Assembly: GCA_026996895.1 (NCBI GenBank) | Contig: JALWJX010000082.1 | Coordinates: forward strand, 38,031 to 102,030 | DNA from: Candidatus Kapaibacterium sp. | GTDB lineage: Bacteria > Bacteroidota > Ignavibacteria > Kapaibacteriales > WFXC01 | Reading direction: 5' to 3' | DNA: 64,000 nucleotides | Part shown: positions 11,850-39,587 of the stretch, in pieces | How the letters are laid out: every line of letters begins with the position of its first letter | Position numbering within the stretch: the first letter of the stretch is position 1 | Notes under the pieces: model-generated | Database searches by the model: none | Told to the model about the DNA's origin: nothing | The model's input: only the letters and a program-made list of their open reading frames with translations | Translations under genes and position numbers: made by a program

Positions 11850-11854
11850 CTGCT

Positions 11855-13993: not shown

Positions 13994-14012
13994 CGCTGCC
14001 CTTCCCTTGATA

Positions 14013-19890: not shown

Positions 19891-20037
19891 CAGCGATAAC
19901 GCAGAGGACAGCGTCCCGGCACTCTCTGCCGACTTTCTTCCGTCGCTCCAGAGAGCAGCAGATAGCGGAGTGCCGGGTACCTTAGCGCAAAAGCGTAAAT
20001 TTGCAATTCCCTAAGCATCGCAACAACTGTCTCAGTA

Positions 20038-20259: not shown

Positions 20260-20277
20260 AAATCTGGAGGAGAGAAA

Positions 20278-20920: not shown

Positions 20921-20984
20921 CGACCGTTGGGGGAATTGTTTCAACCGCAATGCACTTTGAAGCGTGCATCCAGTAGCATCCTAC

Positions 20985-21300
20985 CGGGGGCGCCGGATTC
21001 AGCCGGCATGTTTCTGCACACTAAAGTATGCGCTCCAACCGGGAGCGCCGACTTCCGTCGGCAAAAAATAGAAGGATACACTAACGTAAATGTGTAGTAG
21101 GGGCGACCGGCCGGTCGCCCCTACGGGTGTGGATGATGTGACCAGCGGGGTTGCGCCGACTGGGAGCGCCGGCTTTAGCCGGCAAAGAATGCACCCGGAA
21201 GTGTGCGCTCCCAGTAAACCGGGAACGCCGACTTTCGCTGGCATATCTGGAACACCGACTTCCCGAAAGATAACTACAGATGTAGGCACTGCCGATTTGC
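20985..21300. repeat. REP-like hairpin repeat cluster (inverted orientation relative to 3745-3895) between convergent genes.
   Basis: It contains gggagcgccgac-ttcc-gtcggc, gggagcgccggc-ttta-gccggc, the ggggcgaccggccggtcgcccc palindrome, and gcgctccc modules. Confidence 0.6.
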
Positions 21301-21325
21301 CCCGGCAAAACAGCGAATTGACACT

Positions 21326-22387: not shown

Positions 22388-23391
22388 TCCTCCGGTGATT
22401 GTTGCAGCACCAAACTCAGTCGATGGAGCATCCCAAAGTAGCGTGTTGGTAACAGGCTGTAGTCAATCCGGATACGCCATCCAGTGAAGAGTGGAATCTG
22501 GAGCCCCACGCCCGCTGTCCACGGCGTTAGTGGAGCATTGATGCGATACGCCGCCCGCACCTGAATCTGAAAGGGCATTGCAACCGACAGTTGCCGGGCA
22601 TACTCTCCACCGATCACATACTGTTCCGCCTGATCCGCCGGATGATCAAATTGCACCGTGGCAGTCAACCGTTGCAGTGAATCCTGAAGCACCTCGGTCG
22701 CAACCCCAAAGCGGAAATTTGTCGGAGGAGCAAAGCTTCGCAGCGTCGAACTGGAGTCGTGCGGGTACAGCGGCACCGTTCCCCGTGGTTTTAACGGCGT
22801 ACCGAAATTGGAAATTGCCAGCGCAATGCGGGTGCGCGCCAGCCCTGTGTAATACAACGTCCCCAGATCAAACAACACGCCCTGGAGTGTTGCTTTGCCC
22901 AACCGCTCGGATACGCCCACAACCGTTATCCCTGCCGAAAACTGATCGGTAAAGCGATGCGCATAGGACAATCCAGCGTGAATATGTTCAACGATGAACC
23001 ACTCACCCGTTCCGTATGGCTGCACCTCTGTGGTCACCCGAAGAGGATCGATGCCCAGCCGCGCTACATTGACCGCCACCGCATCATCAGATCCCACGTG
23101 ATAGAGTGCCGAAGCAGCAATCAAGCGGGAACCTGCCAGCCACTGCGCAGCGGAGAATGACGCCTCGAATGATCGAGTCTGGAACAACCCTGCAGGATTG
23201 GCAACCACCACCGATGCGTCATTGGCTAACGCGACAACGCCATCATTCAAACCAGCAGCCCGTGCGGAAAGCGGAATTTTCAACGCCGCACCGATCGTTG
23301 TCCCCACCCGTTCTTCACCAAACGAAGGGATCAACTGCGCTTTGACCGGTAGCAGCAGCATTCCCAACAACACACCCAGAACGAACCGCAT
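22384..23391 (-). CDS. PorV/PorQ-family outer-membrane beta-barrel protein (T9SS-associated).
   Basis: It has a signal peptide. The N-terminal segment GAALKIPLSARAAGLNDGVVALANDASVVVANPAGL resembles, as I recall it, the conserved PorV/PorQ N-terminus. The rest alternates beta-strand patterns. Confidence 0.5.
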   Translation of the reverse strand: MRFVLGVLLGMLLLPVKAQLIPSFGEERVGTTIGAALKIPLSARAAGLNDGVVALANDASVVVANPAGLFQTRSFEASFSAAQWLAGSRLIAASALYHVGSDDAVAVNVARLGIDPLRVTTEVQPYGTGEWFIVEHIHAGLSYAHRFTDQFSAGITVVGVSERLGKATLQGVLFDLGTLYYTGLARTRIALAISNFGTPLKPRGTVPLYPHDSSSTLRSFAPPTNFRFGVATEVLQDSLQRLTATVQFDHPADQAEQYVIGGEYARQLSVAMPFQIQVRAAYRINAPLTPWTAGVGLQIPLFTGWRIRIDYSLLPTRYFGMLHRLSLVLQQSPEE

Positions 23392-26237
23392 CAGAACTCC
23401 ACCATCATTTCCAACCGAAGCATTCGGCGCGAGGCATACCGCGCCGGGTTAAAAGGATACGGATCCAGCGGGGGCTGCAACTGTGGATACAGCGGATCAT
23501 TCCACGACACCGGTGTTGGATCGCCGTATTCGTATGCACGTCCGGTAACGGGATTGAGAATCTGGGAATTTTTTCGATCGAACACGTTCAACACTTCCAA
23601 TCGGAACTGCACTTTTGTGTGTCCGACCGCAACGGCTTTACTGATCGTCACATCCAGCCACCACCACGGATCACCCAGGGCTTCCAGATACCGATTCTCG
23701 TCCCGCTGATACACCGGCTTTCCATTTGGTAGCCGCACCTGCTCGCCCGTTGCAGGATCTATGACCGGCACATACGGCGTGTACCGCAGACCGGATCGAT
23801 AGGTAAATCGGGTATACACCGAAACATCCGCAAGCCAGGGAAGATCGAACCACGGCTGCTCCGCTGAGCTGGTTAGTATCGCTATCGCATTGACATTGAT
23901 CGGCCGATCCCACGACAAAAACACTTCGCCCAACCGCTCATCGGTGATACCTCGAACAATCAAAATGCCTTCATCCGCCGAATTGCTTTTCCCCGTCACC
24001 ACGGAATACGACGCGGAGATTTGTCCCGTAAACCAATCGCCAATCCGTTTTTTGAACTCCACCTCAATGCCCCTGGATCGGGCGTAATCGGCATTGACGT
24101 ACGTTAAGAAACTCCCTCCGGCGAAACGTGGGTTATCAGTCCGCACCCGCCGCGTCTGAACGTAGTCAAAAATGTCTTTGTAGTAGGCGGTCACGGTCAG
24201 TACATCATTGGAGGTAATTTGTGTCCGAATGCCAATTTCATACGCAATGCTGGTTTCTGGATCCAGATCCGGGTTGCCAAATCGCTGATACGTGGAATAC
24301 GCCTGCTGTGGCATCAGCTTCGCATAGACATACTGAGGACGTGGCAATTTGCTGAAATGCCCGAAGCTAAAAAAGAGCGTCTGGTTATTCGTAATCGGAT
24401 GGGAAATACCCAGCCGGGGATTGAGCCGGATTTTCCACCGTCGACCAAACAGGGCAATGGTCTTGCGGAGATAATTCTGACGCTGCTGCTGCGAAATAGT
24501 GGTGCGTCCGGGATCTGCTATCGCTGCGTCGACTTCCGATCCGGGCGCCCAGAAATCAAGTCGAACGCCATAGTTCAGGATCAATCCCCGAAACGTGATG
24601 TTGTGCTGGATATACCAATCGCCAAGGATCGGATGAACGTGAAACACATCATTGTTGAGCCCCAGCGGCTCATACCACGGCGCATAGATATTGGCTTGCT
24701 GTAGCTCCTGAAATCGAAGTTCAAGCCCCGTTTTGATGCGATTTTTCTCTGCAAAAAAGTATGTCACATCCCCCCGGATGGTCCATTCATCGACGAAGTG
24801 GTCGTTCCAGATGTAACCATTGCCCACATCATAGAAGCCATCACCGGGGATAATGCCCAGATGCAGGGAGTCGCCAGTGTCATAGTAGTGCGCCGGAATG
24901 GAGGGGATGTCTGCTGGTGGTTCGTAAGCATCATAATCCCGGCCATTTGCATCCACCTTCAGGCGAGAGTAGAAATTGCTAATCCGCAGCTCATACAGCA
25001 ATTGCTTCGACACCGTATGCATCCAGCTTATTTTCTGGAATTGAGCAATGTTGCCATAGGTAAGAGCTCCGTCGAAATGCCCCTGAAACCGATATTGATA
25101 CCCCGGATCAGGGCGGACATACTCCAGATTCGTCTGAAGCGAACGGGTATTCTGATTGAGCCGCCAGCTCTGGTAGAGGGAATAACTCAACCGCTGCATC
25201 GGCGTCGGCATCCACTCCAGCTTCACATACGCATTCGCCATATTCTCCTGCCGCAAAGAAAGCCAGCGGGGAAGGATCGAGGAACGAACGGTCGTGCGGG
25301 CAAATGCAGGAACAATGTAGTCGGAAGCATTCAGGTATAACGAAGCAAAGAACGTAGCGCTACCTGGCAAACGAACACCCAGCGCTGGCAACACGTACGT
25401 TGTCAACGGTTCCGGACCACCAATGGAGAACTCGAAGATGTCAGTAATAAACGGCGAATTGGTGTCCCGATCGTATGGGTTGCGGCGATGGATCAAATAT
25501 CCCCGGCGAAGTCCTACGTTGCCCCGATACGTTTTGCTTCCTGACCGGGTCTTGATATTGATCACCCCCGCCGTTGTTTGCCCAAATTCTGGATTGATCC
25601 CCCCGGTAATGATCTCCATTGTCTCCACAGCACTGGCGCTTAAGTGTAATCCGAAACCGGTACCCGCCAGTGGATCCTGCACCGATACGCCATCCAGCAA
25701 ATAAGCTGTTTCATACCCCCGGCTCCCCCGAATATGGATCTCCTGATTCTGCTCAATAATTCCCGGCTGCAAGGTCAAGACTTCAGCTATCTGTTCCACC
25801 GGCATTTGCCGAATGGTCTCCCGCTCGATTAACTGGATGCTTTGCGTCTCTTCAACATCGATCAACGGCTTTTTGCCAATCACGACGACTTCCTTCCCCA
25901 GAGAAATAGTCGCTTCTTCCATCGCTATATCGACTGTCACCGTATCTCCCCCCCGTATCCGGATGCCGGTCTTCTTCACCGTTTTATACCCCACATAGCT
26001 CACTTCCAGCGTATACTCTCCAGGTTCAACGTTGCGGATCAGGAAACGCCCACGGGGATCGGAAAACGCTCCGTAGTACGTCCCCGGGATCCGGACCGTC
26101 GCAGACACTAAGGGCTTGCCGCTACGCTTGTCTCGCACCGTACCACGGATCACTCCAGACTGCTGGGCAGCAGCAACGCTGCACCATCCTATGATGCTGA
26201 GAACAAAGATCCACCATATCAACCGACCTCGCATCAT
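23391..26237 (-). CDS. TonB-dependent receptor with an N-terminal carboxypeptidase-regulatory-like domain (SusC-like architecture).
   Basis: It has a signal peptide and a CarbopepD_reg-like beta-sandwich (GVIRGTVRDKRSGKPLVSATVRIP...GEYTLEVSYVGYKTVKK). The plug motif region DGVSVQDP is present, the barrel is long, and the protein ends in a C-terminal F. Confidence 0.8.
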   Translation of the reverse strand: MMRGRLIWWIFVLSIIGWCSVAAAQQSGVIRGTVRDKRSGKPLVSATVRIPGTYYGAFSDPRGRFLIRNVEPGEYTLEVSYVGYKTVKKTGIRIRGGDTVTVDIAMEEATISLGKEVVVIGKKPLIDVEETQSIQLIERETIRQMPVEQIAEVLTLQPGIIEQNQEIHIRGSRGYETAYLLDGVSVQDPLAGTGFGLHLSASAVETMEIITGGINPEFGQTTAGVINIKTRSGSKTYRGNVGLRRGYLIHRRNPYDRDTNSPFITDIFEFSIGGPEPLTTYVLPALGVRLPGSATFFASLYLNASDYIVPAFARTTVRSSILPRWLSLRQENMANAYVKLEWMPTPMQRLSYSLYQSWRLNQNTRSLQTNLEYVRPDPGYQYRFQGHFDGALTYGNIAQFQKISWMHTVSKQLLYELRISNFYSRLKVDANGRDYDAYEPPADIPSIPAHYYDTGDSLHLGIIPGDGFYDVGNGYIWNDHFVDEWTIRGDVTYFFAEKNRIKTGLELRFQELQQANIYAPWYEPLGLNNDVFHVHPILGDWYIQHNITFRGLILNYGVRLDFWAPGSEVDAAIADPGRTTISQQQRQNYLRKTIALFGRRWKIRLNPRLGISHPITNNQTLFFSFGHFSKLPRPQYVYAKLMPQQAYSTYQRFGNPDLDPETSIAYEIGIRTQITSNDVLTVTAYYKDIFDYVQTRRVRTDNPRFAGGSFLTYVNADYARSRGIEVEFKKRIGDWFTGQISASYSVVTGKSNSADEGILIVRGITDERLGEVFLSWDRPINVNAIAILTSSAEQPWFDLPWLADVSVYTRFTYRSGLRYTPYVPVIDPATGEQVRLPNGKPVYQRDENRYLEALGDPWWWLDVTISKAVAVGHTKVQFRLEVLNVFDRKNSQILNPVTGRAYEYGDPTPVSWNDPLYPQLQPPLDPYPFNPARYASRRMLRLEMMVEF

Positions 26238-27868
26238 CAGGGCACCTGAAACTCCTCTACCAGAATATGCTCCAGCAACCGGGCAGCCCCCCCGTTGCGC
26301 TGAAATGCGGACAGCGGCAGATTCAGAAAAAATTGCTGATCAACGGTACTCTGGATAATAACCGGGGGAGTACCGTCATAATCCGATTTTGGCGGCAACA
26401 GATACAGCGATCGAGCCGCAGCGGTGGGGAATAATCGATGAATACCAACGACATTCCCGCTCCCCTTGACCAATCGGGGATACCGCTGCAGCGCCTGCTC
26501 CGTCCGCATCAACGTATCGCCGGGGCGAAAAACGGTCGGAGAGGAAAAGAGCTCCTGCGCAGAGAGACTATCCAGCGGTGCAAAGTCCAGAATTTTCTGC
26601 CGTTCCTGCAGCGTTGGCAAATTCGGCAGTGGGGCACTAAAGATCAGCTTCCCACCGGCGGCAAGATAGCCTGGCAACACCGTTTGCGGAATATCCAGAG
26701 ATAATCCAATGTCGCCGTACCAGAGCACAACATCGAAAAGTTTTAAGGTTTCAACAAACATCGGGGTCAGCAGCCGCGGCAGGTTGCGATACCAGCCGTC
26801 GCTGCCACGCTCCCGAATGTTCAAAAACTCGTATCGTCCCGCATACCGCCCCCCGCCAATGGTATCCAGTGCCGTCTGATAGAACTGGTGGGAACGTTTG
26901 TCAAAAGAATCCTCGACAACCAAAATCGGACCCGCAGGCTGCTTCACATACCACACTCCATCCGGAGGAGGATACTGCAATACAGCACTCCGCAGTCCCC
27001 CCCGGTCCACTGCGCGGATATACAGGACATTAGGAGCATTCAGGCGGAGTCCATCTGCCGCCCGCAGCGTCAGCATCGTTTGCGTCGGTGGGATCCGGTG
27101 CCATTCTGCAGTCTCACTGCTATCATTGAGTGACCATTCGATTGCAGCCAGTGTTTCGTTTCCATCGAAATCGTAAGCGGCAAACACGAAGGTTGCCACC
27201 GGGAATGTCGTATCAGGCAAACGCATCAGGGCTGCTGCGGCAGGGGTGGAATCTGGTCCCCAGAAAATCTGCGGCGGCGTGTTCACGACCCGGTATTCCA
27301 CCACTGCGGGTGACAGATCGACCGCTCCTTCCAATCCCCGGAATTCCTCTTCCGGTGGATCCCATCGACCATTACCATCGCGATCGTCAAAAGGAATCGG
27401 CATACTGGTGTCTGCCGGCGGCTCCCATACCACCGAATTGTCCACAGCAGCAACGGCGAAACGGAAGGTAGAGTCGGGACGGCGTAAGCGCAACTGGAAC
27501 AATGAATCATTCCGCCGGGTAAAGTACCAGCGGCGAAAATCCCAGGAAAACAGAAAGCCGATCACCAGACCATCGGGATCATCACCGTACCAGTAGACGT
27601 GGACCTGGCTGGACTGCTCGGTTCGCACTGAGTCAACCGCCAGAAACGTTTCTGGCCGCCGATTTCCCCGCTCTTCTGGCGCTGGCGGTTCTGTACATCG
27701 ATGAAAACTCAGCAAAAGTACAACCCCCAGGCTCCAGACGCTCAAAATGCTCCAACAGGATTTCACTATTTCACGCCACCACTGTGTGCCTACCTGATCT
27801 GCGAAAGTGCAAAAATACAAAATGCTGGTGGGATGTGCACGTGCTGTGTACTCAACCCGAATCGACAT
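26237..27868 (-). CDS. Hypothetical lipoprotein; first gene of an operon with the TonB-dependent receptor.
   Basis: It has a lipoprotein-like signal (LSVWSLGVVLLLSFHRC) and no identifiable domain. Its stop overlaps the receptor start by 1 nt. The true start is uncertain. Confidence 0.45.
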   Translation of the reverse strand: MSIRVEYTARAHPTSILYFCTFADQVGTQWWREIVKSCWSILSVWSLGVVLLLSFHRCTEPPAPEERGNRRPETFLAVDSVRTEQSSQVHVYWYGDDPDGLVIGFLFSWDFRRWYFTRRNDSLFQLRLRRPDSTFRFAVAAVDNSVVWEPPADTSMPIPFDDRDGNGRWDPPEEEFRGLEGAVDLSPAVVEYRVVNTPPQIFWGPDSTPAAAALMRLPDTTFPVATFVFAAYDFDGNETLAAIEWSLNDSSETAEWHRIPPTQTMLTLRAADGLRLNAPNVLYIRAVDRGGLRSAVLQYPPPDGVWYVKQPAGPILVVEDSFDKRSHQFYQTALDTIGGGRYAGRYEFLNIRERGSDGWYRNLPRLLTPMFVETLKLFDVVLWYGDIGLSLDIPQTVLPGYLAAGGKLIFSAPLPNLPTLQERQKILDFAPLDSLSAQELFSSPTVFRPGDTLMRTEQALQRYPRLVKGSGNVVGIHRLFPTAAARSLYLLPPKSDYDGTPPVIIQSTVDQQFFLNLPLSAFQRNGGAARLLEHILVEEFQVP

Positions 27869-28015
27869 CGGGAATTTCTATCCATTTGCCGGTCCGGGAT
27901 GCCATCTTCCCATCCACTCGCATTGGAGTTCGGAGCAACGCAGAGATCACTCCTCTACCTCGTTAAATCCGGTCCTCTGCGCAGGAGCATTCCACCCCTT
28001 CAAAACACCCGGCGA

Positions 28016-28038
28016 AAATTACGTAATTTTACGTATTG
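28016..28038 (+). promoter_or_regulatory. 23-nt conserved motif aaattacgtaattttacgtattg with an ACGTAA-TT-TTACGT palindrome. It lies 68 nt upstream of the 28106 operon and is identical at 52058-52080.
   Basis: It is an exact 23/23 match at two loci, both at the same distance upstream of paralogous giant-protein operons. A second palindrome, CTACATTTGTAG, lies at 28058-28069. Confidence 0.55.
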
Positions 28039-28105
28039 CAAGGGTTGCGGCTATTTGCTACATTTGTAGAGATTTTGGAACAGTAGCTCCAGACATAAAC
28101 AAAGA

Positions 28106-31100
28106 ATGCGAAGAGCGTGGATCAGTGCTATAGGAATTTTCATCAGCGTTTCGGTTATCTGGGGACAAACGCCTTCCAACGGCGCATTGCTGCTGACCAA
28201 CAATGCTGCTTTTGTTGTCCTCCCTGGCAGCGACATTACCATTGCAACCAGTGCGGGGATCAAACAGGAAAATGCCAGTGCAATCGTGCTGTACGGCGAC
28301 CTGGAAAATCACGGTAAGATCGTCCCCGGCGATGGATACCTGTTGTGTACGGGTCCTTCGACGCAGGTCCTCCGGGGTACTCGGGAAATTACTCTTAACC
28401 ACTGGTGGTTCCGGAAATCTGCTCCTTCCGACGTTGTCAAAATCGACAACGATGTGCGGGTCTATCAGCCGCTCACTGTGAATACGGTCACCTTAGAAAT
28501 CATCCACAGCAGCTCACACACGGTCACCCTGGACAGCGATCTTAAAATCAATGCTGATGGCAAGTGGATCGTTGCTTCAACGGGGACGACGGGACGCGAC
28601 CATCAAATTGTGCTCCGTGGCAATGCCCAAATCGATGGACAATGGATTCTCCGACCCATTCTGAACAACGACAACTATCGTGCCCGCCTGCGATTTCAAA
28701 CGACCGCAACGCAAACACTCACTGGCAGCGGGACGGTGCAATTCTACCAGGTCATTCTCGACAAAGGAAGCAAGGCAAACCGGGTTGAAAGCCGGATGAA
28801 CGTCGGGCTGAGCGCTCTGGGCTCAGGCTCTGCGATGGATTTCATCGCCGGTACGTGGCAGCAAACGACGGGAACGTTGACATTCGACAATGGCGTGAGC
28901 GTTTCTTACAACGAAACTATTGCCGCTAACGGATCACTCCAGATCCTGGGCGATGCTTCGATGATCATCGGGCAAAATGGCGTTGGAAGCTCTTTGATCC
29001 TCGACGGAGGCGAATTCATCGTAAACACGACTGGATTTGCCAATATCGGCAGCCAGAACGATAATTCCCTGCAATACACGGATGCTGGCGGCAGTCGATT
29101 CGAGCTCCATCAGGGAACAGTGACTGTTGCTGGACGCTTTTCACGCCAAACGGCAACGGGAACCAACACAATAGACTATCTCCAGACGGGGGGCACGCTG
29201 ATCGTCGGTGCCGTTGGTCACTCGAACGGCTCCCTCGGAACCTTTGATATCGGTGCCAGCGGCTCTTCCTTCACAATGGGCGGCGGGACTATCATTTTGC
29301 GCAATGCAAACAGCTCCGGAAGCAGCAGCCGTCCGGCAGATTTCAATGTTCAGGCAGCAACCGTTGCAGTCTCCGGCGGCACGGTTCAATTTGGCGATGC
29401 AGGGACGACAACACTGCAGCGATTCGATTATGATGTCCCCAACGGCGCATTGTGGCACGTATCGGTCAGTTCTGCGAACGCCACGGTTTACCCTTTTTCC
29501 CCAACTTCCGATCTCCGCATTCAGGGGAACTTCTACAATGCAGGCAGATGGGATGGGACACAAACGCGATCGGGCACTGCTGTCTCAACGGCTGGGATTG
29601 TCTTTGAAGGTAGTGGTGCCACGTCGCAAACGGTGCGAAGTCTGGGAACAACGACCTTTGCAACGTTGCGGATGAACCGCGGTGCCGGCAGCGGCATTGT
29701 GCAACTGCTCGATGACATTTCTGTCTCCCACCAGGTTGATCTGCGCGAAGGCAGCAATAGCCAGCCACAGATTCTGGCGCTGGGCAGTGGAGCCAATCTC
29801 TATGTGCTGAGCACCAGCACCACGGCAATTATCGACTACGCCAGTGCGCCAATCCGATACATTCGCACCAGTACCACCAGCGGCCGTGTCGTATGGAACG
29901 TTACGGCGGGAAAGACCTACTTCTTCCCCATAGGATCAGCCGAAAGTGGTGATACGTACACTCCCGCTGAAGTTGCTATCGGCAGTGGCGGCAGCGATGG
30001 CAGGATCGGCATCCGGGTCTCCCGTGGGCAACGTGCCGATGGAGCGCATCTCCAACTCCCGTCGAGTGCAACAGACTTTCTGCGACGATACTGGTCGATT
30101 TCCAACGTCACAATGACCCATCCTGCACAATGGACGTTCTACTATCAGGATGGCGCTGCATACCTTGCAGGCAGTGAAGCGAATCTGGCGCAAGCAGGGC
30201 GATGGCGACCAATCAACGAGGCGCCCGGTGGCAACTGGGTCGGCTACGCTGCAACCGTTAACCCATCACAGAATTTCTTCCAGTTGCCCACCCTTGACGC
30301 TTCACTGCTGGAAGGAGATTGGACCTTAGCCAATGAAATTTTCCGACAAATTTTCTACAGCCGCCAGAGCGGACCGTGGAGTCAGCACACTTCGTGGACA
30401 TATAGTCCTACCCACGTCGGACCCAGTGTGGCAACTGGCGTTTATCCCGCCGCCGCCACGGATTCTGCTGTTATAGGCGGCGGCAGTTATGGTGTCGGCA
30501 ACCACCATATCCAGTTGGATCTTTCCGTCACGATCGGTGGCGTTACTGTCGGCACCTCAGCTACCAACACCGGCACCTTAGAACTCCGGGATAACATCAT
30601 CAGCGGTGATTGGTTTGTCCTCCAAGATCAATCCACCCTGATGATTGGCTCGACCAGTGGCATTATGGCAGCCCCAGCGGCAGCAGGGAATGTGCAGACG
30701 ACCTATCGAGTTTTCGCCACAACCGCAACATACGTCTACAATGGCACAACGAACCAGACGATCGGTACTGCTCTTCCTTCGACCGTCGCAACATTTCGGG
30801 TCGACAACACAGGACCTGCCGGCAACAATCGCGTAACGGTAGACCGAACCATCCAGGTCACCCGGGACTTAGAAATCCTCCAGGGCGAATTAGACGTCAC
30901 AACGGTCACAATGCCCAATGTTAGCGCCAGCGGAAATTTTGTTCTGGCTACCGACGCATCTGTCCGCATAGGGGGGAGCAACAACTTCGGTGCAGCCTTC
31001 GCCGGTTACACCACTTACACCTTAGCCACCAGCAGTACGGTGGAATTCTACGGCAACAGCAAAACGGTCGATATGCCTCCAAACGGCGGACTCGGCTATG

Positions 31101-31291
31101 GCTATCTGGTCATCTCTGATGCACCAACGAAGTACATCAATGCACCGTTGCGGGTCCGTCGGGACGTGACGATCAATCCCGGTGCTTTCCTCTGGAACAA
31201 CGTCAGCGGTAATCAATTCCAGGTACTCGGCAATATTGTCAATCACGGGCAGCTATGCAACGACGGTATTATCGAAATTGGAATACCATAG
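28106..31291 (+). CDS. Large secreted Ser/Thr/Gly-rich protein of unknown function (1061 aa), encoded upstream of giant fiber-like protein 1.
   Basis: It has a signal peptide (MRRAWISAIGIFISVSVIWGQ) and low-complexity beta-rich composition. It appears co-operonic with 31416-39587, with a 124-nt gap and no intervening motif. Confidence 0.6.
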   Translation: MRRAWISAIGIFISVSVIWGQTPSNGALLLTNNAAFVVLPGSDITIATSAGIKQENASAIVLYGDLENHGKIVPGDGYLLCTGPSTQVLRGTREITLNHWWFRKSAPSDVVKIDNDVRVYQPLTVNTVTLEIIHSSSHTVTLDSDLKINADGKWIVASTGTTGRDHQIVLRGNAQIDGQWILRPILNNDNYRARLRFQTTATQTLTGSGTVQFYQVILDKGSKANRVESRMNVGLSALGSGSAMDFIAGTWQQTTGTLTFDNGVSVSYNETIAANGSLQILGDASMIIGQNGVGSSLILDGGEFIVNTTGFANIGSQNDNSLQYTDAGGSRFELHQGTVTVAGRFSRQTATGTNTIDYLQTGGTLIVGAVGHSNGSLGTFDIGASGSSFTMGGGTIILRNANSSGSSSRPADFNVQAATVAVSGGTVQFGDAGTTTLQRFDYDVPNGALWHVSVSSANATVYPFSPTSDLRIQGNFYNAGRWDGTQTRSGTAVSTAGIVFEGSGATSQTVRSLGTTTFATLRMNRGAGSGIVQLLDDISVSHQVDLREGSNSQPQILALGSGANLYVLSTSTTAIIDYASAPIRYIRTSTTSGRVVWNVTAGKTYFFPIGSAESGDTYTPAEVAIGSGGSDGRIGIRVSRGQRADGAHLQLPSSATDFLRRYWSISNVTMTHPAQWTFYYQDGAAYLAGSEANLAQAGRWRPINEAPGGNWVGYAATVNPSQNFFQLPTLDASLLEGDWTLANEIFRQIFYSRQSGPWSQHTSWTYSPTHVGPSVATGVYPAAATDSAVIGGGSYGVGNHHIQLDLSVTIGGVTVGTSATNTGTLELRDNIISGDWFVLQDQSTLMIGSTSGIMAAPAAAGNVQTTYRVFATTATYVYNGTTNQTIGTALPSTVATFRVDNTGPAGNNRVTVDRTIQVTRDLEILQGELDVTTVTMPNVSASGNFVLATDASVRIGGSNNFGAAFAGYTTYTLATSSTVEFYGNSKTVDMPPNGGLGYGYLVISDAPTKYINAPLRVRRDVTINPGAFLWNNVSGNQFQVLGNIVNHGQLCNDGIIEIGIP

Positions 31292-31415
31292 CTCCGGTGT
31301 ATCATAGCGGTGTTACGGGGGCTGTCAAACGCTATCTGGCACTTTGTGCGCAACCTACGCACACTGCACTGAAAATGGCAAAATATTTTGGGTAATAAAT
31401 CAAGGAAGTCTGGTG

Positions 31416-34400
31416 ATGAAACACAGAGTCCAATTGATACTTCTGATCTGGTTGATTTTTTCACCCTTACTCTGGTCTCAGGGCAATCCCAGCGTTGGAA
31501 TCGGCACTTTTACCCCTGATCCTTCTGCAATCTTAGAGCTTCGCTCCACATCGAAGGGGTTCTTGGTGCCACGAATGACAACGGCACAACGGAATGCGAT
31601 CAGCTCTCCTGCTCTCTGGCTGCTGATCTTCAACACTGATACCCAGCAGTTTGAATACTGGAACGGCACGGTATGGATCCCGCTGATTTCTATACAAAAC
31701 GTCAGCAACAGTGCCTGGTCTCTCAGTGGCAACACGCTCACCGGGAGCGAGTTTCTTGGATCTGTGAATCTCCAGCCGGTAGTGTTCAAGACCAATGGTG
31801 CGGAGCGAATGCGGATTTCCACGACCGGCAATGTTGGTATCGGCATCATTACGCCGACCAATACCCTGCACGTTAAAGCAACCAGCAATCCCCTGCGACT
31901 GGAAGGCTTGCAGTCTCTGAGCAACGCTTCTACAATCTTAGCGGTCGATGCCAACGGCGTTGTCTACACCACCAGTGCCAGTTCCTTTACGGCATCGAAC
32001 GCCTGGTCGCTGACAGGAAATGCCGGCACTGATCCAAACACCGACTTTCTGGGTACGACGGACAATCAACCGCTGGTGATTCGGACGAACAACACCGAGC
32101 GGATGCGGATTCTGGCATCCGGTTTGGTCGGGATCGGAACCAATACCCCAACGAACACGTTGCACGTCAAAGCAACGAGCAACCCACTGCGGTTGGAAGG
32201 CGTGCAAACTACTGCCAGCGCTTCGACCCTGTTAGCCATCGACGCCAATGGGGTCGTGGTCTCGACCAGTGCCTCGACTTTTGTTGCCAACAACGCTTGG
32301 GCACTCAGCGGCAACACGCTCACTGGCAGTGAGTTCCTCGGATCAGTCAATGCCCAGCCGGTAGTGATCCGAACGAACAACACCGAGGCGATGCGGATCG
32401 ATGCCAATCAACGGGTGGGAATTGGAACGAACGCACCGAGCCACACCCTGCACGTTGCTGCGCCCAGCAATCCGTTGCGACTGGAAGGGTTGCAGTCATT
32501 GAGCAATGCGGGAACGATCTTAGCCGTGGATGCCAACGGTGTTGTCTACACCACCAGTGCCAGTGCCTTTGCTGCTGCTAACGCCTGGTCGCTGACAGGA
32601 AATGCCGGCACTGATCCGACAACGAATTTCCTGGGCACTACTGACAATCAACCGTTGGTGATCAGAGTCAATAATCTGCAAGCTGTGCGAATTGAACCAA
32701 CGAACCAAACGATCAATATCATCGTGGGAACTTCCAACATCGTCACTGCGGGCGTCTATGGAGCTGTTATTAGCGGTGGTGGATATGGAAACAATGAAAA
32801 TAAAGTCACAGACAACTTCAGTACAGTAAGCGGAGGAGTTTCAAATCAAGCTGGGAACAATAACGCTGATGTAACCGATGCACAGTACGCCACGGTCGGA
32901 GGAGGCTACGGAAATACTGCCAGCGGTTTAGGCAGCACTATTAGCGGTGGATGGAACAACACTGCCAGTGCTGCCCGGAGTACGATTGGTGGAGGATATA
33001 ACAACAATGCCATCGGATGGGGAACCACTATTGGGGGAGGTGCTGATAATATTGCCAGCAGCGAGTATAGCACAGTCAGTGGTGGGAAAAACAACAATGC
33101 CAACGTTGCTTATAGTACCATTGGAGGAGGTCTGCAAAATACTGCCAGTGGTCAATATAGTACCATTGGAGGAGGTCTGCAAAATACTGCCAGTGGTCAA
33201 TATAGTACCATTGGAGGAGGTCTGCAAAATACTGCCAGTGGTCAATATAGTACCATTGGAGGAGGCAGTGCTAATATAACAGGTGGCGATTGGAGCACTG
33301 TGAGCGGAGGATGGACAAACATTGCCAGCGGAGGTGGCAGCGTTGTTGGTGGTGGACGGGGCAATACAGCAGGTGGAGCCTATAGTACCATACCTGGAGG
33401 TCTCAACAACTCTGCCCTGGGTGATTATACCTATGCAGGAGGAAGAGCGATGTATTTGAGTACCTCGGCCAACCATACCTTTGTCTGGGGCTATGCAACG
33501 GCAACTTCTGCTATCACCGCCTCCGACGCCTTCCTCATCGGTCCCTACGGGAACAACTACCGCGTTGGGATCAATGTCGTTAATCCTACTGCTGCTCTGC
33601 ATGTCACCGCTGGAACGTGGACGTATCCATTGCGACTGGAAGGATTGCAGCCACTGAGCAACGCCGGAACGATCTTAGCGGTCGATGCCAACGGCGTTGT
33701 CTACACCACCAGTGCCAGTGCTTTTGCTGCTGCCAATGCCTGGACGCTGACAGGGAATGCCGGGACTGATCCAGCAATTAACTTCTTGGGTACAACGGAC
33801 AATCAACCACTGGTGATTCGCACCAACAACCTTGAACGGATGCGGATCTCCACGACCGGCAATGTCGGCATTGGCATCAGCACGCCGACCAACACGTTGC
33901 ACGTCAAAGCAACGAGCAACCCACTGCGGTTGGAAGGCGTGCAAACTACTGCCAGTGCTTCGACCCTGTTAGCCATCGACGCCAATGGGGTCGTGGTCTC
34001 GACCAGTGCCTCGACTTTTGTTGCCAACAACGCCTGGGCACTCAGCGGCAACACGCTCACTGGCAGTGAGTTCCTCGGATCAGTCAATGCCCAGCCGGTG
34101 GTGTTCAAGACCAGTGGAATTGAAGCGATGCGGATCGACGTTGATCAGCAGGTTGGGATCGGCACCAGCACACCAACGAACACCTTGCACGTTAAAGCGA
34201 CCATCGATCCGTTACGACTGGAAGGGTTGCAAACCACCAGTGCTACTGCGACGGTCCTGGTTTCGGACGCTGCGGGGATCGTGTACACCACCAGCGCTAG
34301 CGCTCTTGCTGCTGCCAATGCCTGGTCGCTCACTGGCAACGCTGGAACCAACCCAGCGAGCAACTTCTTAGGCACCACGGACAATCAGCCACTGATTATC

Positions 34401-37400
34401 AAAGTTAATAACGCACAGGCATTGCGCATAGAGCCAACTGTCGGATCCCCAAATATTCTGGGCGGCTACGGATTGAACAGTATCTCCAGTGGCGTAGTTG
34501 GAGCTGTTATCAGCGGTGGGGGTAGCACTGGATTATCGAACAAAGTCACCGACAATTATGGTGTTATCGGAGGCGGCGTGGGAAATCAAGTGGGAAACAA
34601 TAGCGGAGGAGCTATCGATGCTCAGTATGCAACCGTAGGTGGCGGCTATGGAAACACTGCCAGCAGTACCTCGAGCACCGTGGGTGGCGGTGAACTTAAC
34701 ATTGCCAGTGGACTCCGGAGCACTGTTGGCGGCGGTTATAGCAACACTGCCAGTGGCGATAGGGGTACTGTGGGAGGAGGTTACGGGAATACCGCCAGCG
34801 GCCCGGGCAGCACCGTTGCTGGTGGCGAGAATAATACTGCCAGTGGTGGCGTGAGTGCTGTGGGTGGCGGTGACAACAATATTGCCAGTGGTGATGTGAG
34901 CACTGTGGGTGGCGGTTATAGCAACATTGCCAGCGGTGCAGGAAGTACTGTGGGCGGCGGTACAAACAACACTGCTAGTGGCAATACCAGTACCGTATCA
35001 GGTGGAGCTTTCAATACTGCAGCAGGTGACGTTTCCTGGGCTGGAGGAGCATACATGTATCTGTCGCCCACCGCCGATCACACCTTTGTCTGGGGCTATG
35101 CAACGGCAACTTCTGCTATCACCGCCTCCGACGCCTTCCTCATCGGTCCCTACGGGAACAACTACCGCGTTGGGATCAATGTCGTTAATCCTACTGCTGC
35201 TCTGCATGTCACCGCTGGAACGTGGACATATCCATTGCGATTAGAAGGCTTGCAACCACTGAGCAATGCGGGGACAATCTTAGCGGTTGATGCCAACGGT
35301 GTTGTGTACACCACCAGTGCCAGTGCGTTTGCTGCTGCTAACGCCTGGGCACTGACAGGGAATGCCGGAACCGATCCAGCAATCAACTTCTTGGGTACTA
35401 CGGATAATCAACCGTTGGTGATTCGCATTAACAACCTTGAGCGGATGCGGATTTCCACCATCGGCAACGTCGGCATTGGCATCAGCACGCCGACCAACAC
35501 CTTGCACGTCAAAGCGACCAGTGATCCGTTGCGGTTAGAGGGCGTGCAGAGCAGTGCTAATGCGACGACCCTGTTAGCCATCGACGCCAGTGGAGTGGTA
35601 GTATCGACCAGCGCCTCGACCTTTGTTGCCAACAACGCTTGGGCACTCAGCGGCAACACCCTCACTGGCAGTGAGTTCCTCGGATCGGTCAATGCGCAGC
35701 CGGTGGTGATCCGGACCAACAACACCGAGGCGATGCGGATCGATGCCAACCAACGGGTGGGGATTGGAACCAATGCACCGAGCCACACCTTACACGTTGC
35801 TGCGCCCAGCAACCCGCTGCGGTTGGAAGGCTTGCAACCTCTGAGCAATGCGGGGACAATCTTAGCCATTGATGCCAATGGCGTGGTGTACACGACCAGT
35901 GCAACATCCTTCACCGCTGCCAATGCCTGGTCGCTCACAGGAAACGCCGGGACTGATCCAAACACCGACTTTCTGGGCACGACGGACAACCAACCGCTGG
36001 TGATTCGGACGAACAACACCGAACGGATGCGGATTCTGGCATCCGGACTGGTCGGCATCGGAACCAGCACACCGAGTCATACGTTGCACGTCAAAGCAAC
36101 GAGTGACCCGTTGCGGTTAGAGGGCGTGCAGAGCAGTGCTAATGCGACGACGCTGTTAGCCATCGATGTCAATGGGGTCGTGGTCTCGACCAGTGCCTCG
36201 ACTTTTGTTGCCAACAACGCTTGGGCACTCAGCGGCAACACGCTCACTGGCAGTGAGTTCCTCGGATCAGTCAATGCCCAGCCGGTAGTGATCCGGACGA
36301 ACAACACTGAGGCGATGCGGATCGATGCCAGTCAACGGGTGGGGATTGGAACGAACGCACCGAGCCACACCCTGCACGTTGCTGCGCCCAGCAATCCATT
36401 GCGTCTGGAAGGCTTGCAGTCATTGAGCAATGCCGGAACCATCTTAGCGGTCGATGCCAACGGCGTTGTCTACACCACCAGTGCAACATCCTTCACCGCT
36501 GCGAATGCCTGGGCACTCAGCGGCAACACCCTTACTGGCAGTGAGTTCCTCGGATCGCTCAATGCCCAGCCCGTGGTGTTCAAGACTAATGGCGTAGAAC
36601 GAATGCGAATTACTGCTGCTGGTGACATTGGCATTGGAACCACAACTCCAGGTGCCAAAGTTGACATCCGGGCGAATAGTGCCAGCGATCTGCTGGTTCG
36701 CATCTGGAACGCTGGTGGCAATGCAAAATTCCGCATCGTTGGTCAGGGTGGCAGTGCACAACCACGGTTTCAGTATACGGTCAACGCTGAATGGCTCTCC
36801 GAGATTGCCGGCAACACCAGTACAGGTTTGGAATTCCGAGTTCGTGCTCCGTCGGATCCAAATGACGAAGCAACTCTGGCAACCCGAACCCGGATGGTGG
36901 TTGGGAGGACGGGCAATGTCGGCATTGGAACGCTATCGCCAACGAATCGACTCCACGTCGTTGCTCCCAGCAACCCACTGCGACTGGAAGGGTTGCAGTC
37001 ATTGAGCAATGCGGGAACGATCTTAGCGGTCGATGCCAACGGCGTTGTCTACACCACCAGTGCAACATCCTTCACCGCTGCGAATGCCTGGGCACTGAGT
37101 GGGAATGCGGGAACCGATCCAAACACCGACTTTCTGGGTACGACGGATAATCAACCGCTGGTGATTCGGACGAACAACACCGAACGGATGCGGATTCTGG
37201 CATCCGGACTGGTCGGGATTGGAACCAATACCCCAACGAACACGTTGCACGTCAAAGCAACGAGCAACCCACTGCGGTTGGAAGGCGTGCAGACTACTGC
37301 CAGCGCTTCGACCCTGTTAGCCATCGATGTCAATGGGGTCGTGGTCTCGACCAGTGCCTCGACTTTTGTTGCCAACAACGCTTGGGCACTCAGCGGCAAC

Positions 37401-39587
37401 ACGCTCACTGGCAGTGAGTTCCTCGGATCAGTCAATGCCCAGCCGGTAGTGATCCGGACGAACAACACTGAGGCGATGCGGATCGATGCCAATCAACGGG
37501 TGGGGATTGGAACGAACGCACCGAGCCACACCCTGCACGTTGCTGCGCCCAGCAATCCGTTGCGTCTGGAAGGGTTGCAGTCATTGAGCAATGCCGGAAC
37601 GATCTTGGCGGTTGATGCTAACGGTGTGGTCTACACCACCAGCGCCAGTTCCTTTACAGCATCGAACGCCTGGTCGCTGACAGGAAACGCCGGGACTGAT
37701 CCGACAACGAATTTCCTGGGAACTACCGACAATCAACCACTGGTGATTCGCACCAACAACCTTGAACGGATGCGGATCTCCACGACCGGCAATGTCGGCA
37801 TTGGCATCAGCACGCCGACCAACACGTTGCACGTCAAAGCAACGAGCAACCCACTGCGGTTGGAAGGCGTGCAAACTACTGCCAGTGCTTCGACCCTGTT
37901 AGCCATCGACGCCAATGGGGTCGTGGTCTCGACCAGTGCCTCGACTTTTGTTGCCAACAACGCTTGGGCACTCAGCGGCAACACGCTCACTGGAAGTGAA
38001 TTTCTCGGATCGGTCAATGCGCAGCCGGTAGTGATCCGAACGAACAACACTGAGGCGATGCGGATCGATGCCAACCAACGGGTGGGGATTGGAACCAATG
38101 CACCGAGCCACACCTTACACGTTGCTGCGCCCAGCAACCCGCTGCGGTTGGAAGGTTTACAACCACTGAGCAACGCCGGAACGATCTTGGCGGTTGATGC
38201 TAACGGTGTGGTCTACACCACCAGCGCCAGTTCCTTTACAGCATCGAACGCCTGGTCGCTGACAGGAAACGCCGGGACTGATCCGACAACGAATTTCCTG
38301 GGAACTACTGACAATCAACCGCTGGTGATTCGGACCAACAATGCGGAACGGATGCGAGTGTTAGCCTCTGGCTACGTTGGTGTTGGGACGACCTCTCCAA
38401 CTGCCCGGTTAATGGCAGTCGAAGATGCACCCGGACAGGCAGTGATGCGAATCCAGAATCTGGATGCCGCTGGTCTTTCCGGTATTGAATTTCTGACCCA
38501 CACCTCTGCTGTAATGGGGTACGTTGGGCTGGAACCTGGCGGCGGTGCTCTGCGCATCTGGAGTCAGTCAAATATGATCCGGTTCTATACCAACGGCGTA
38601 GAACGGGTGCGAATCACGACCACCGGAAACGTTGGAATCGGATCCTTAGATCCGCAATATCGGCTGCACATTGAAGGCGATGGAATGATGTACGCCTCTG
38701 GAGAATTCGGCAAGGGCGCAACGATGCCAGAAGGAGCAAAGACGGCGTTCATCTGGAATCCGCGCAAAGCGGCATTGCGAGCAGGATCGGTGACAGCAGA
38801 TCAGTGGAACGATGCTCAGGTCGGCGCTTACACCGTCGCTTTTGGTAAAAACACGATTGCCAGTGGCGCATTTTCCGTTGCGGTTGGAGAAAACACGGTT
38901 GCTGAAGGAGCGGCTGCGTGGGTCGGCGGTCGGAATTTGCATCTGCTCCCGGATGCAACGGGTACGTTTGCCTGGGGCAATACCGAACACTCCACATCGA
39001 TCGAAACCAGTTATGCGTTCCTGATTGGTCCTGGAGATACGCCCTACCGTGTCGGGATCAACACGGCAACACCGACGTACGCACTGGAGTTGCCCAATGA
39101 CTCGCGAGCGAACGTGGGACAGGCACGAGCAAACGCGTGGCTGACATACGCAGATCCACGGATGTGGAGTGCAACTGAACCCATTGGCGCAACCAGTGAG
39201 CTGTTGTCACAACTCCAACCGCTTCGATACCGCGATGTTGCAGGCAAGAGCGGCTTCAGCTTTGATCCCCAGCAACTGGCAGCGGTTCTCCCGGAAGCGG
39301 TGGGGGTTCCAGCAGACAGCTCGCAGCAGTGGAGTATTAACTATGCAGCGCTCATTCCTGTGCTGGTCGCAATGCTCCAGGAACAGCAGCAGCAAATCCA
39401 GCAATTGCGGCAACAGAATCTGGCATTGCAACAGCAAGTTGCCGAAACACAGCAACTCCGGAAGCGACTGGCAAAAATGGAGCAGCAACTGTCAACGCTG
39501 GAACAGTTACAGCAGCAGGTTCGGTACCTGATCCAGCTCCAGCGTGAAGCACGCCCCGTTCCAACAGCAAGCAACGGCGGAAAATAA
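31416..39587 (+). CDS. Giant secreted repeat protein (about 2,720 aa). It has a signal peptide, about twenty ~95-aa modules, two YadA-head-like Gly-rich 14-mer blocks, a C-terminal tail-fiber intramolecular-chaperone (peptidase S74)-like domain and a Gln-rich coiled coil.
   Basis: It has a signal peptide (MKHRVQLILLIWLIFSPLLWSQ) after an aggaag ribosome-binding site. The module consensus is NAWSLTGNAGTDP..FLGTTDNQPLVIRTNN.ERMRI...VGIGT.TPT.TLHVKATSNPLRLEGLQ....LAVDANGVVYTTSAS. The STIGGGLQNTASGQYSTIGGG repeats resemble the YadA head. The C-terminus (LQPLRYRDVAGKSGFSFDPQQLAAVLPEAVGV....QWSINYAALIPVLVAMLQEQQQQIQQL) resembles the S74 chaperone domain. Confidence 0.8.
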   Translation: MKHRVQLILLIWLIFSPLLWSQGNPSVGIGTFTPDPSAILELRSTSKGFLVPRMTTAQRNAISSPALWLLIFNTDTQQFEYWNGTVWIPLISIQNVSNSAWSLSGNTLTGSEFLGSVNLQPVVFKTNGAERMRISTTGNVGIGIITPTNTLHVKATSNPLRLEGLQSLSNASTILAVDANGVVYTTSASSFTASNAWSLTGNAGTDPNTDFLGTTDNQPLVIRTNNTERMRILASGLVGIGTNTPTNTLHVKATSNPLRLEGVQTTASASTLLAIDANGVVVSTSASTFVANNAWALSGNTLTGSEFLGSVNAQPVVIRTNNTEAMRIDANQRVGIGTNAPSHTLHVAAPSNPLRLEGLQSLSNAGTILAVDANGVVYTTSASAFAAANAWSLTGNAGTDPTTNFLGTTDNQPLVIRVNNLQAVRIEPTNQTINIIVGTSNIVTAGVYGAVISGGGYGNNENKVTDNFSTVSGGVSNQAGNNNADVTDAQYATVGGGYGNTASGLGSTISGGWNNTASAARSTIGGGYNNNAIGWGTTIGGGADNIASSEYSTVSGGKNNNANVAYSTIGGGLQNTASGQYSTIGGGLQNTASGQYSTIGGGLQNTASGQYSTIGGGSANITGGDWSTVSGGWTNIASGGGSVVGGGRGNTAGGAYSTIPGGLNNSALGDYTYAGGRAMYLSTSANHTFVWGYATATSAITASDAFLIGPYGNNYRVGINVVNPTAALHVTAGTWTYPLRLEGLQPLSNAGTILAVDANGVVYTTSASAFAAANAWTLTGNAGTDPAINFLGTTDNQPLVIRTNNLERMRISTTGNVGIGISTPTNTLHVKATSNPLRLEGVQTTASASTLLAIDANGVVVSTSASTFVANNAWALSGNTLTGSEFLGSVNAQPVVFKTSGIEAMRIDVDQQVGIGTSTPTNTLHVKATIDPLRLEGLQTTSATATVLVSDAAGIVYTTSASALAAANAWSLTGNAGTNPASNFLGTTDNQPLIIKVNNAQALRIEPTVGSPNILGGYGLNSISSGVVGAVISGGGSTGLSNKVTDNYGVIGGGVGNQVGNNSGGAIDAQYATVGGGYGNTASSTSSTVGGGELNIASGLRSTVGGGYSNTASGDRGTVGGGYGNTASGPGSTVAGGENNTASGGVSAVGGGDNNIASGDVSTVGGGYSNIASGAGSTVGGGTNNTASGNTSTVSGGAFNTAAGDVSWAGGAYMYLSPTADHTFVWGYATATSAITASDAFLIGPYGNNYRVGINVVNPTAALHVTAGTWTYPLRLEGLQPLSNAGTILAVDANGVVYTTSASAFAAANAWALTGNAGTDPAINFLGTTDNQPLVIRINNLERMRISTIGNVGIGISTPTNTLHVKATSDPLRLEGVQSSANATTLLAIDASGVVVSTSASTFVANNAWALSGNTLTGSEFLGSVNAQPVVIRTNNTEAMRIDANQRVGIGTNAPSHTLHVAAPSNPLRLEGLQPLSNAGTILAIDANGVVYTTSATSFTAANAWSLTGNAGTDPNTDFLGTTDNQPLVIRTNNTERMRILASGLVGIGTSTPSHTLHVKATSDPLRLEGVQSSANATTLLAIDVNGVVVSTSASTFVANNAWALSGNTLTGSEFLGSVNAQPVVIRTNNTEAMRIDASQRVGIGTNAPSHTLHVAAPSNPLRLEGLQSLSNAGTILAVDANGVVYTTSATSFTAANAWALSGNTLTGSEFLGSLNAQPVVFKTNGVERMRITAAGDIGIGTTTPGAKVDIRANSASDLLVRIWNAGGNAKFRIVGQGGSAQPRFQYTVNAEWLSEIAGNTSTGLEFRVRAPSDPNDEATLATRTRMVVGRTGNVGIGTLSPTNRLHVVAPSNPLRLEGLQSLSNAGTILAVDANGVVYTTSATSFTAANAWALSGNAGTDPNTDFLGTTDNQPLVIRTNNTERMRILASGLVGIGTNTPTNTLHVKATSNPLRLEGVQTTASASTLLAIDVNGVVVSTSASTFVANNAWALSGNTLTGSEFLGSVNAQPVVIRTNNTEAMRIDANQRVGIGTNAPSHTLHVAAPSNPLRLEGLQSLSNAGTILAVDANGVVYTTSASSFTASNAWSLTGNAGTDPTTNFLGTTDNQPLVIRTNNLERMRISTTGNVGIGISTPTNTLHVKATSNPLRLEGVQTTASASTLLAIDANGVVVSTSASTFVANNAWALSGNTLTGSEFLGSVNAQPVVIRTNNTEAMRIDANQRVGIGTNAPSHTLHVAAPSNPLRLEGLQPLSNAGTILAVDANGVVYTTSASSFTASNAWSLTGNAGTDPTTNFLGTTDNQPLVIRTNNAERMRVLASGYVGVGTTSPTARLMAVEDAPGQAVMRIQNLDAAGLSGIEFLTHTSAVMGYVGLEPGGGALRIWSQSNMIRFYTNGVERVRITTTGNVGIGSLDPQYRLHIEGDGMMYASGEFGKGATMPEGAKTAFIWNPRKAALRAGSVTADQWNDAQVGAYTVAFGKNTIASGAFSVAVGENTVAEGAAAWVGGRNLHLLPDATGTFAWGNTEHSTSIETSYAFLIGPGDTPYRVGINTATPTYALELPNDSRANVGQARANAWLTYADPRMWSATEPIGATSELLSQLQPLRYRDVAGKSGFSFDPQQLAAVLPEAVGVPADSSQQWSINYAALIPVLVAMLQEQQQQIQQLRQQNLALQQQVAETQQLRKRLAKMEQQLSTLEQLQQQVRYLIQLQREARPVPTASNGGK
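31700..38350 (+). repeat. Intragenic tandem and interspersed DNA repeats (285-bp modules, many more than 90% identical over more than 300 bp) inside the giant gene.
   Basis: Near-identical stretches occur at about 32170-32480, 37260-37570 and 37850-38150, and at about 31830-32000, 33820-33990 and 37780-37950. The same spurious antisense ORFs (MHAFQPQWVARCFDVQRV...) appear three times. Confidence 0.8.

Follow-up and report, generated by a model that had tools for sequence, protein, structure and literature searches.

Near-identical in-frame repeats in a giant modular fibre gene of a Kapaibacterium-like bacterium: probable remodelling by recombination and a risk of mis-assembly

The window, by which we mean the whole stretch of 64,000 nucleotides (nt) analysed from contig JALWJX010000082.1 of Candidatus Kapaibacterium sp., contains a giant gene for a putative surface fibre. 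The repeats inside this gene are the subject of the present analysis. The interval 31700-38350, in which a preliminary description had noticed long near-identical repeats, lies wholly inside one long open reading frame (ORF), and all of those repeats fall within 31416-39587 on the plus strand. The gene is 8172 nt (8.2 kb) long, and translation from the ATG at 31416 gives database protein P0001. The product has the layout of a secreted fibre, with a shaft of A and B modules, head blocks, and a C-terminal S74-like block followed by a coiled coil. Module parsing gave 17 module starts of two alternating types, A (98 amino acids (aa); pattern NAWSLTGNAGTDP..FLGTTDNQPLVIRTNN..) and B (96 aa; pattern NAWALSGNTLTGSEFLGSVNAQPVV..), an A-B unit being 582 nt. 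The two types are ∼61% identical in nucleotides. From the N- to the C-terminus the modules run B A B (A+head, 385 aa) A B (A+head, 341 aa) A B A B (B+insert) A B A B (A+C-terminus). Without exception, the complete modules measure 96 or 98 aa, and the reading frame is unbroken over 2723 codons. The parts of the gene are as follows.

31416..39587, plus strand: fibre gene, 2723 aa and a stop codon, the sole long ORF across the region.
31416..31709, plus strand: signal-peptide-like N-terminus (MKHRVQLILLIWLIFSPLLWSQ) and unique N-terminal domain (∼75 aa), from the translation.
31710..32579, plus strand: modules B1 (31710-31997), A2 (31998-32291) and B3 (32292-32579), from module parsing; holds the first of the three long segments compared below.
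32580..33734, plus strand: start of A4 joined to head block 1 (385 aa, GGxxNxASGxxSTxGGG repeats), from UspA1 homology.
33111..33265, plus strand: perfect 45-nt tandem repeat within head 1, 3.4 copies, 100% matches (YSTIGGGLQNTASGQ three times).
33735..34316, plus strand: modules A5 and B6, with the first copy of the 236-nt exact repeat (33798-34033 = 37728-37963).
34317..35339, plus strand: start of A7 joined to head block 2 (341 aa), which has its orthologous counterpart (91.2% nt identity) in the ortholog's first head.
35340..36503, plus strand: modules A8, B9, A10 and B11, with the 178-nt exact repeat (36153-36330 = 37314-37491).
36504..37082, plus strand: start of B12 fused to a 96-aa non-repeat insert that is absent from the ortholog.
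37083..38246, plus strand: modules A13, B14, A15 and B16; hold the second and third of the long segments.
38247..39584, plus strand: start of A17 fused to the unique C-terminal region (91.7% nt identical to the ortholog), which comprises a short YadA-head-like stretch, the S74-like block with the motif ADPRMW at 39150-39167, and a Gln-rich coiled coil at ∼39363-39560.

We compared the three segments of more than 300 nt that had been described as almost identical. Segment 32170-32480 differs from 37255-37565 at 7 of 311 nt (97.7% identity; one aa change) and from 37837-38147 at 16 of 311 nt (94.9%; no aa change), and the latter two segments differ from each other at 18 of 311 nt (94.2%; one aa change). 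Local alignment of the first pair gave 98.0% over 305 nt. The near-identity was therefore confirmed, for a minority of tracts, and the statement that only third codon positions differ holds for most of the differences (6 of 7, 14 of 16 and 15 of 18, respectively) and not for all of them. Identity of at least 95% over at least 300 nt recurs at six in-register offsets (5085, 3930, 1161, 3924, 5667 and 582 nt). The longest exact repeats are of 236 nt (33798/37728), 178 nt (36153/37314) and 146 nt (33477/35082), followed by those of 134 nt (37593/38175) and 126 nt (32246/36170/37331), and every exact-repeat offset is divisible by 3. This is well above background: we counted 71 maximal exact repeats of ≥25 nt in the gene, whereas the remainder of the window holds only two of ≥30 nt. 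Homologous recombination has a length threshold of ∼25–30 nt, as known from studies of E. coli RecA. The in-frame exact matches of this gene (25–236 nt) extend beyond this threshold, as would be expected of a repeat array like that of BadA (see below).

The high identity is confined to a minority of tracts. Over whole modules, nt identity ranges from 67 to 96%, with most module pairs at 67–90%, and Tandem Repeats Finder scored a 288-nt array at just 58% matches. Within the 64-kb window we found no silent donor cassettes or pseudogene copies, and no exact repeat of at least 30 nt joins the gene to other sequence; a paralogous fibre gene at 52142-58246 matches it at only ∼74–75%. The perfect 45-nt tandem repeat arose apart from these, by a very recent expansion within head 1, a block missing from the ortholog.

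Modules of the same type have a median synonymous divergence (dS) of 0.6–0.8, with a ratio of nonsynonymous to synonymous divergence (dN/dS) of 0.05–0.13 that marks strong purifying selection on the protein, and the B modules are 95–99% identical in protein. With such a dS between copies of the same type, constraint on codons or codon preference cannot explain the identical tracts. Divergence along collinear copies is patchy, with identical cores of 126–236 bases between flanks that are 20–40% different; one example, counted per 30 nt, reads 9 6 5 0 0 0 0 0 0 0 1 3 7 9 11 differences. We performed a Sawyer-type runs test, in which the order of the polymorphic sites was permuted among six A-B units. 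In the pair formed by units 5-6 and 15-16, 64 polymorphic sites in a row (236 nt) are shared although 101 of the 191 such sites differ (global p<0.0005), and three more unit pairs of the window reached a global p of ∼0.015–0.025. In the ortholog, five unit pairs reached a global p≤0.001, the summary value for both genomes being p<0.0005. The nearest relative also changes along a single unit: W15-16 (W denotes units of the window) is closest to W5-6 at unit positions 64–299, to W8-9 at 388–491 and to W13-14 at 511–582. This change of relatives, together with the runs test, is the signature of gene conversion and not of simple duplication.

Recent segmental duplication without conversion would be a simpler account, in which the similar copies are the youngest multi-module duplicates, held alike by purifying selection. 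Long collinear matches exist, as this account predicts (31823-32662 versus 36908-37747, 90.5% over 840 nt; 35793-36530 versus 36954-37691, 88.6%), the tract-level dS (0.19–0.25) is near the between-genome dS of 0.18, and each of the two genomes may have expanded its array on its own. However, divergence within the collinear matches is strongly non-uniform and the runs test rejects a random spread, the nearest neighbours switch along one unit, and purifying selection acting on the protein cannot keep synonymous sites identical while other copies have a dS of 0.6–0.8. We regard duplication alone as quite improbable, and gene conversion remains the preferred source of the identical tracts.

Next, we compared the gene with its relatives. 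Scans of a genome collection and a metagenome collection with the C-terminus of the product gave one locus each, and a further protein search gave one fragment, so the comparative sample is small. In the genome collection just one species-level genome matched, a metagenome-assembled genome (MAG) of Candidatus Kapaibacterium sp. A syntenic ortholog (P0002, 3108 aa) is encoded in locus L001, where the five genes upstream of it are the same as in the window. Identity between the flanks of the two loci is 95.2% along a 6.2-kb stretch and 91.7% in the upstream gene, and the dS of the flanking genes is 0.18. The ortholog runs B A B (A+head, 341) ABABAB (A+head, 381) ABABABABAB (A+C-terminus), with 22 module starts against 17 in the window. 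The 341-aa head and the C-terminus, at the identities given above, served as orthologous anchors; between them lie 9 module starts in the window and 17 in L001. Head 1 of the window is without a counterpart in L001 (best block match 67–69%), the 96-aa insert has no match of at least 200 nt to any ortholog block, and the second head of L001 is without a counterpart in the window. Module number and cassette content thus differ between close relatives. The preliminary description had proposed that copy number is likely to vary between cells or strains and had suggested comparing strains and isolates; the comparison with the ortholog revealed another module count and other inserted blocks, and the variation was found between related lineages.

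Within-genome clustering was observed as well. The nearest relative of 28 of the 32 complete modules (window and ortholog together) is in their own genome, and no cross-genome module pair is more than 88.4% identical, though the flanks are at 92–95%. This clustering and the patchy identity point to gene conversion, and the proposal of recent gene conversion or unequal crossing-over is supported by both of them and by the runs test.

The repeats have consequences for assembly, which could be seen directly in relatives of the window. L004 (GCA_027046495.1) is identical to L001 (an ENA assembly, ERZ23495399, sample SAMN12239309) over 29,327 nt save for 30 sites. All 30 differences are in three tracts of the repeat array (L001 12415-12529, 13478-13564 and 17461-17494), and the 20-kb flanks are identical. 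The three tracts of L001 are each an exact copy of another module, and the L004 versions are each unique. Either three conversions took place between near-clonal populations, or paralog-specific variants were collapsed during assembly or polishing of L001. In L002, which is of the same lineage as L001 and has a contig name beginning with k151_, the contig opens with exactly the last 150 nt (k-1) of a 203-nt exact repeat. This is where a contig from a de Bruijn graph at k=151 would be expected to break. L003 and L006, from other lineages, likewise start inside the last modules of the array, so that 3 of the 6 assemblies examined that contain the 3' end of the gene stop at the array. L006 (JGI 3300003178, contig FcsdDRAFT_1006094) carries a more distant allele (79% nt identity), and its positions 1-500 have frame breaks or shifts and a duplicated SNAGTILAVDASGVVYT peptide; this start looks like mis-assembly or read errors in the repeat. 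From L005, a second and more fragmented assembly of the window's own population, the fibre gene was not recovered. The mis-assembly risk raised in the preliminary description is therefore demonstrated in the relatives. It was also observed that L005 ends at 47148, inside the gene of a 1669-aa protein, where no obvious window repeat explains the break.

These observations bear on the possibility that part or all of the near-identical tracts, and perhaps the order or number of modules, are artefacts made by the path choice of an assembler or by polishing over paralog variants. At 236, 178 and 146 nt, the longest exact repeats are longer than the k-mers in usual use. The 236- and 146-nt repeats are interleaved in the window (33477, 33798, 35082, 37728), which allows an alternative traversal, and a k-mer graph at k≤141 would admit another internal order of the gene with equal k-mer content; this follows from the repeat positions and not from a computation on reads. 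The breaks in L002, L003 and L006, the exact paralog copies that set L001 apart from L004 in the repeats only, and the failure to recover the gene from L005 are also on the side of an artefact. On the other hand, the ORF is intact with its exact module lengths, which favours the window assembly, yet in-register errors would escape notice. K-mers shared between copies must be present in the reads, whatever path is taken. The ortholog, assembled separately, has the same mosaic signature, and its length of 3108 aa is the same in two assemblies. The tract variants of L004 occur in no other copy, so mixing of paralogs cannot produce them. We consider an origin of this kind improbable. Nevertheless, long reads are needed before the order of modules within the fibre gene of this MAG, and perhaps their count, can be trusted.

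The product was then compared with known protein families. In a phmmer search against the PDB, the A and B modules matched the structures of Bdellovibrio MAT fibres (8ond_A (Bd2133), E 6e-7; 8ojn_C, E 1.4e-6). The blocks aligned to these structures, GNVGIGISTPTNTLHV and GNLGLGTAAPTSALHV, are in the region ERMRI..GNVGIGT..P...LHV. Passages of Caulton et al. 2024 (PMC10769870) describe a capping-loop motif, V-G-G/N-pi-x-x-P-x-x-x-L, as part of the intertwined trimeric β-helices of MAT fibres, and the shaft of the window protein has repeated β-helix segments with this motif. A signal peptide followed by a conserved β-rich N-terminal domain of ∼130 aa is a further trait of the MAT superfamily; the window protein has the signal-peptide-like N-terminus, and its N-terminal 118 aa had no Pfam match at E≤1. 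The heads are homologous to the head of UspA1 (PDB 3pr7, E 2.2e-25, aa 520-617 and 1069-1201) and matched Pfam UspA1_rep in 7 stretches (E 8e-12), and they are thus of the YadA/UspA1-type β-roll repeats found in trimeric autotransporters. No autotransporter anchor or C-terminal β-barrel translocator family was among the Pfam matches at E≤1 in the last 267 aa.

The C-terminal block aligns with homologues that bear an S74 domain, through the helix pattern L..L.P..Y / G.IAQE..V.PE.V / Y..L, and is followed by the coiled coil. Pfam PF13884 (S74) had no match at E≤1 in the last 267 aa and is missing also from the domains precomputed for P0001 and P0002, though many homologues have it. The catalytic position SDxxxK reads ADPRMW (aa 2579-2584), with Ser replaced by Ala and Lys by Trp, and the block is accordingly not assigned to the active S74 domains. 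ADPRMW is kept in L001, L002 and L006, and L003 was also found with the search pattern TYADPRMW; the in-window paralog retains the Ser and Lys (STPETK). Since both positions are replaced, self-cleavage of the fibre C-terminus is not expected, judging from the S782A result given in passages of PMC10769870. The fibre thus probably keeps its chaperone and coiled-coil end uncleaved. From its sequence, the product is probably a secreted, trimeric, cell-surface fibre, and it would work like a MAT fibre with heads of the trimeric-autotransporter type, while it does not have the C-terminal hallmarks of autotransporter adhesins or of active S74 proteins. Several whole-protein matches to Pfam and NCBIfam (TORC_C, Bac_rhamnosid-like_N, NOL11_N, rSAM_Cxxx_rpt and others) were rejected as summed low-complexity artefacts with no significant single stretch. 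The family PF26696 ('PTL_trimer'), taken from precomputed annotation, had no match in our Pfam scans, and a literature search on this family returned nothing.

Taken together, we consider it likely that this is a modular fibre gene remodelled by homologous recombination, in which conversion homogenises the modules and unequal crossing-over alters their number. The shaft would be built of alternating A and B β-helix modules and interrupted by UspA1-like heads. The module proteins would have to stay alike, and this would keep their DNA similar enough for homologous recombination, presumably of the RecA type. Gene conversion would copy tracts of ∼100–400 nt between modules, giving islands of identity amid old synonymous divergence, while unequal crossing-over of out-of-register modules would add or remove modules or multi-module blocks with the frame preserved. 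Lineages would then carry fibres with differing module counts. In the phenotype, these changes would probably affect how long the fibre is and how its heads are spaced or how many it has, and fibre length might have a role in fitness.

A number of points weigh against this account. All the compared sequences are metagenome assemblies, in which identical tracts could arise or be lost through a wrong repeat path or through polishing with reads placed on the wrong copy. The difference between L001 and L004 can be read as such an artefact, and the two assemblies that traverse the ortholog array, possibly made from the same reads, agree on 3108 aa. The smallest dS of any cross-genome module pair is 0.53, against 0.18 in the flanks, and the N-terminal part (31416-31709 versus 10001-10294 of L001) has only 79% nt identity, with a dS of 1.05 and a protein identity of ∼88% by eye. 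Because of these dS values (0.53 and 1.05), the 5' seven kilobases of the gene are an old, divergent allele that does not descend from a copy carried at the time the two genomes separated. Independent duplication after the split of the alleles, and not conversion, could therefore account for part of the within-genome clustering. As to the protein, its trimeric structure is a prediction, and an AlphaFold monomer model of the C-terminal 281 aa was poor (predicted local distance difference test score (pLDDT) 62.7), with only the long terminal helix confident. The contrast between the dS of 1.05 in the N-terminal part and 0.18 in the neighbouring genes suggests either allelic replacement or long-maintained divergent alleles of a surface locus.

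A stronger form of the recombination account would make the gene a contingency locus, where conversion and crossing-over are far faster than point mutation, near-clonal populations already differ in their arrays, and selection on length or head placement keeps old, highly divergent alleles. A hint in this direction is given by L001 and L004, with 30 differences in three tracts and none in the 20-kb flanks. We find this doubtful, and put it forward only tentatively; if true, it would place a contingency locus in a lineage that is uncultured and non-pathogenic and whose MAT-type fibres carry a chaperone domain that does not cleave. The antigenic variation that the preliminary description had considered fared poorly. 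The exchanged modules encode almost the same protein, as is evident from the 0–1 aa changes in the three segments, the 95–99% protein identity of the B modules and the dN/dS of 0.05–0.13, and a change of antigen by conversion is for this reason unlikely.

Among described systems, the closest behaviour is that of BadA of Bartonella henselae. According to passages of Thibau et al. 2022 (PMC8859334), its domain arrays were seen by long reads to differ from strain to strain, and this was attributed to recombination within repeats. In both cases, as far as those passages describe BadA, a very long gene of a fibrous adhesin consists of repeated modules, the arrays differ and long reads are needed; in addition, the heads of the window protein are homologous to those of UspA1, another trimeric autotransporter adhesin. 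BadA, however, is described in PMC8859334 as a trimeric autotransporter anchored in the membrane by its C-terminus, with badA pseudogenes flanking its gene, whereas the window gene has no anchor domain and no pseudogene or silent copies within 64 kb. The repeats of BadA form neck and stalk, and those of the window fibre are MAT-type shaft modules.

The MAT fibres of Bdellovibrio bacteriovorus (PMC10769870; PDB 8ond, 8ojn, 8oml) are similar in being secreted and in having repeated β-helix segments with the capping-loop block ERMRI...GNVGIGTxxPTxxLHV, a C-terminal region of the S74-chaperone type and, in the passages concerned, a mosaic exchange of domains among family members. The window fibre is ∼3 times longer than the MAT proteins (∼920–1150 aa in those passages), has seventeen near-identical module starts interrupted by UspA1-type heads, reads ADPRMW in the S74-like block, and belongs to a Kapaibacterium-like host that is no known predator; dynamics of repeats at the DNA level are not mentioned in the passages of PMC10769870. 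The S74 spikes and fibres of phages (K1F endosialidase and the T5 L-shaped tail fibre, named in the same source passages) resemble the C-terminal block and coiled coil, but the window block is without a PF13884 match, has Ala and Trp for Ser and Lys, and is in an ordinary chromosomal setting.

The phenomenon is well known, and we describe a fresh example from a little-studied lineage, not a new kind of mechanism. Remodelling of repeats of the kind known from pathogen adhesins such as BadA appears to be active in environmental Kapaibacterium-like bacteria too, and here it would act on a fibre that joins a MAT-type shaft, trimeric-autotransporter-type heads and a chaperone-like end without catalytic residues. 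For this reason the locus is a candidate marker for strain-level diversity and for surface-fibre function.

The surroundings of the gene are those of an ordinary chromosome (∼54% GC), with genes for a TonB-dependent receptor, an extracytoplasmic function (ECF) sigma factor, a chemoreceptor, glycosyltransferases and a Clp-type ATPase. A scan of 20 neighbouring ORFs found no recombinase, transposase or phage genes. Directly upstream on the same strand, 28106-31291 encodes a secreted 1061-aa protein that was without a match in Pfam or NCBIfam. It holds the same position in L001 and L004, where it is 1034 aa long, and might act together with the fibre. The paralogous fibre P0003 (2034 aa), also a giant secreted protein, encoded at 52142-58246, is 44% identical over one third of the query and has a precomputed PTL_trimer match; its gene has just four exact repeats of at least 25 nt. 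On the minus strand, 45790-50799 encodes a giant secreted protein of 1669 aa, the sole Pfam match of which, to Ig_3, was borderline and had no significant single stretch. Two antisense ORFs run through the repeat array on the minus strand, at 32928-33602 (224 aa) and 35408-36070 (220 aa), and are to be taken as candidate ORFs only.

The order of the chromosome around the gene also differs between lineages. Downstream of the fibre gene, L001 and L002 carry the reverse complement of window 11063-21036, and the fibre-gene segment (window ∼21036-39587) is for this reason inverted between lineages. L003 has the downstream junction of the window. A comparison of the inversion junctions of the window and L001 gave chance matches of 9–13 nt only as inverted repeats. 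At the rearrangement junction, in window 21000-21330, a GC-rich intergenic palindrome (GGGAGCGCCGACTT..GCCGGCAAA-like) occurs several times, and a related palindromic element lies after the fibre gene in L001, at 19340-19440. These elements may be similar to repetitive extragenic palindromic (REP) sequences.

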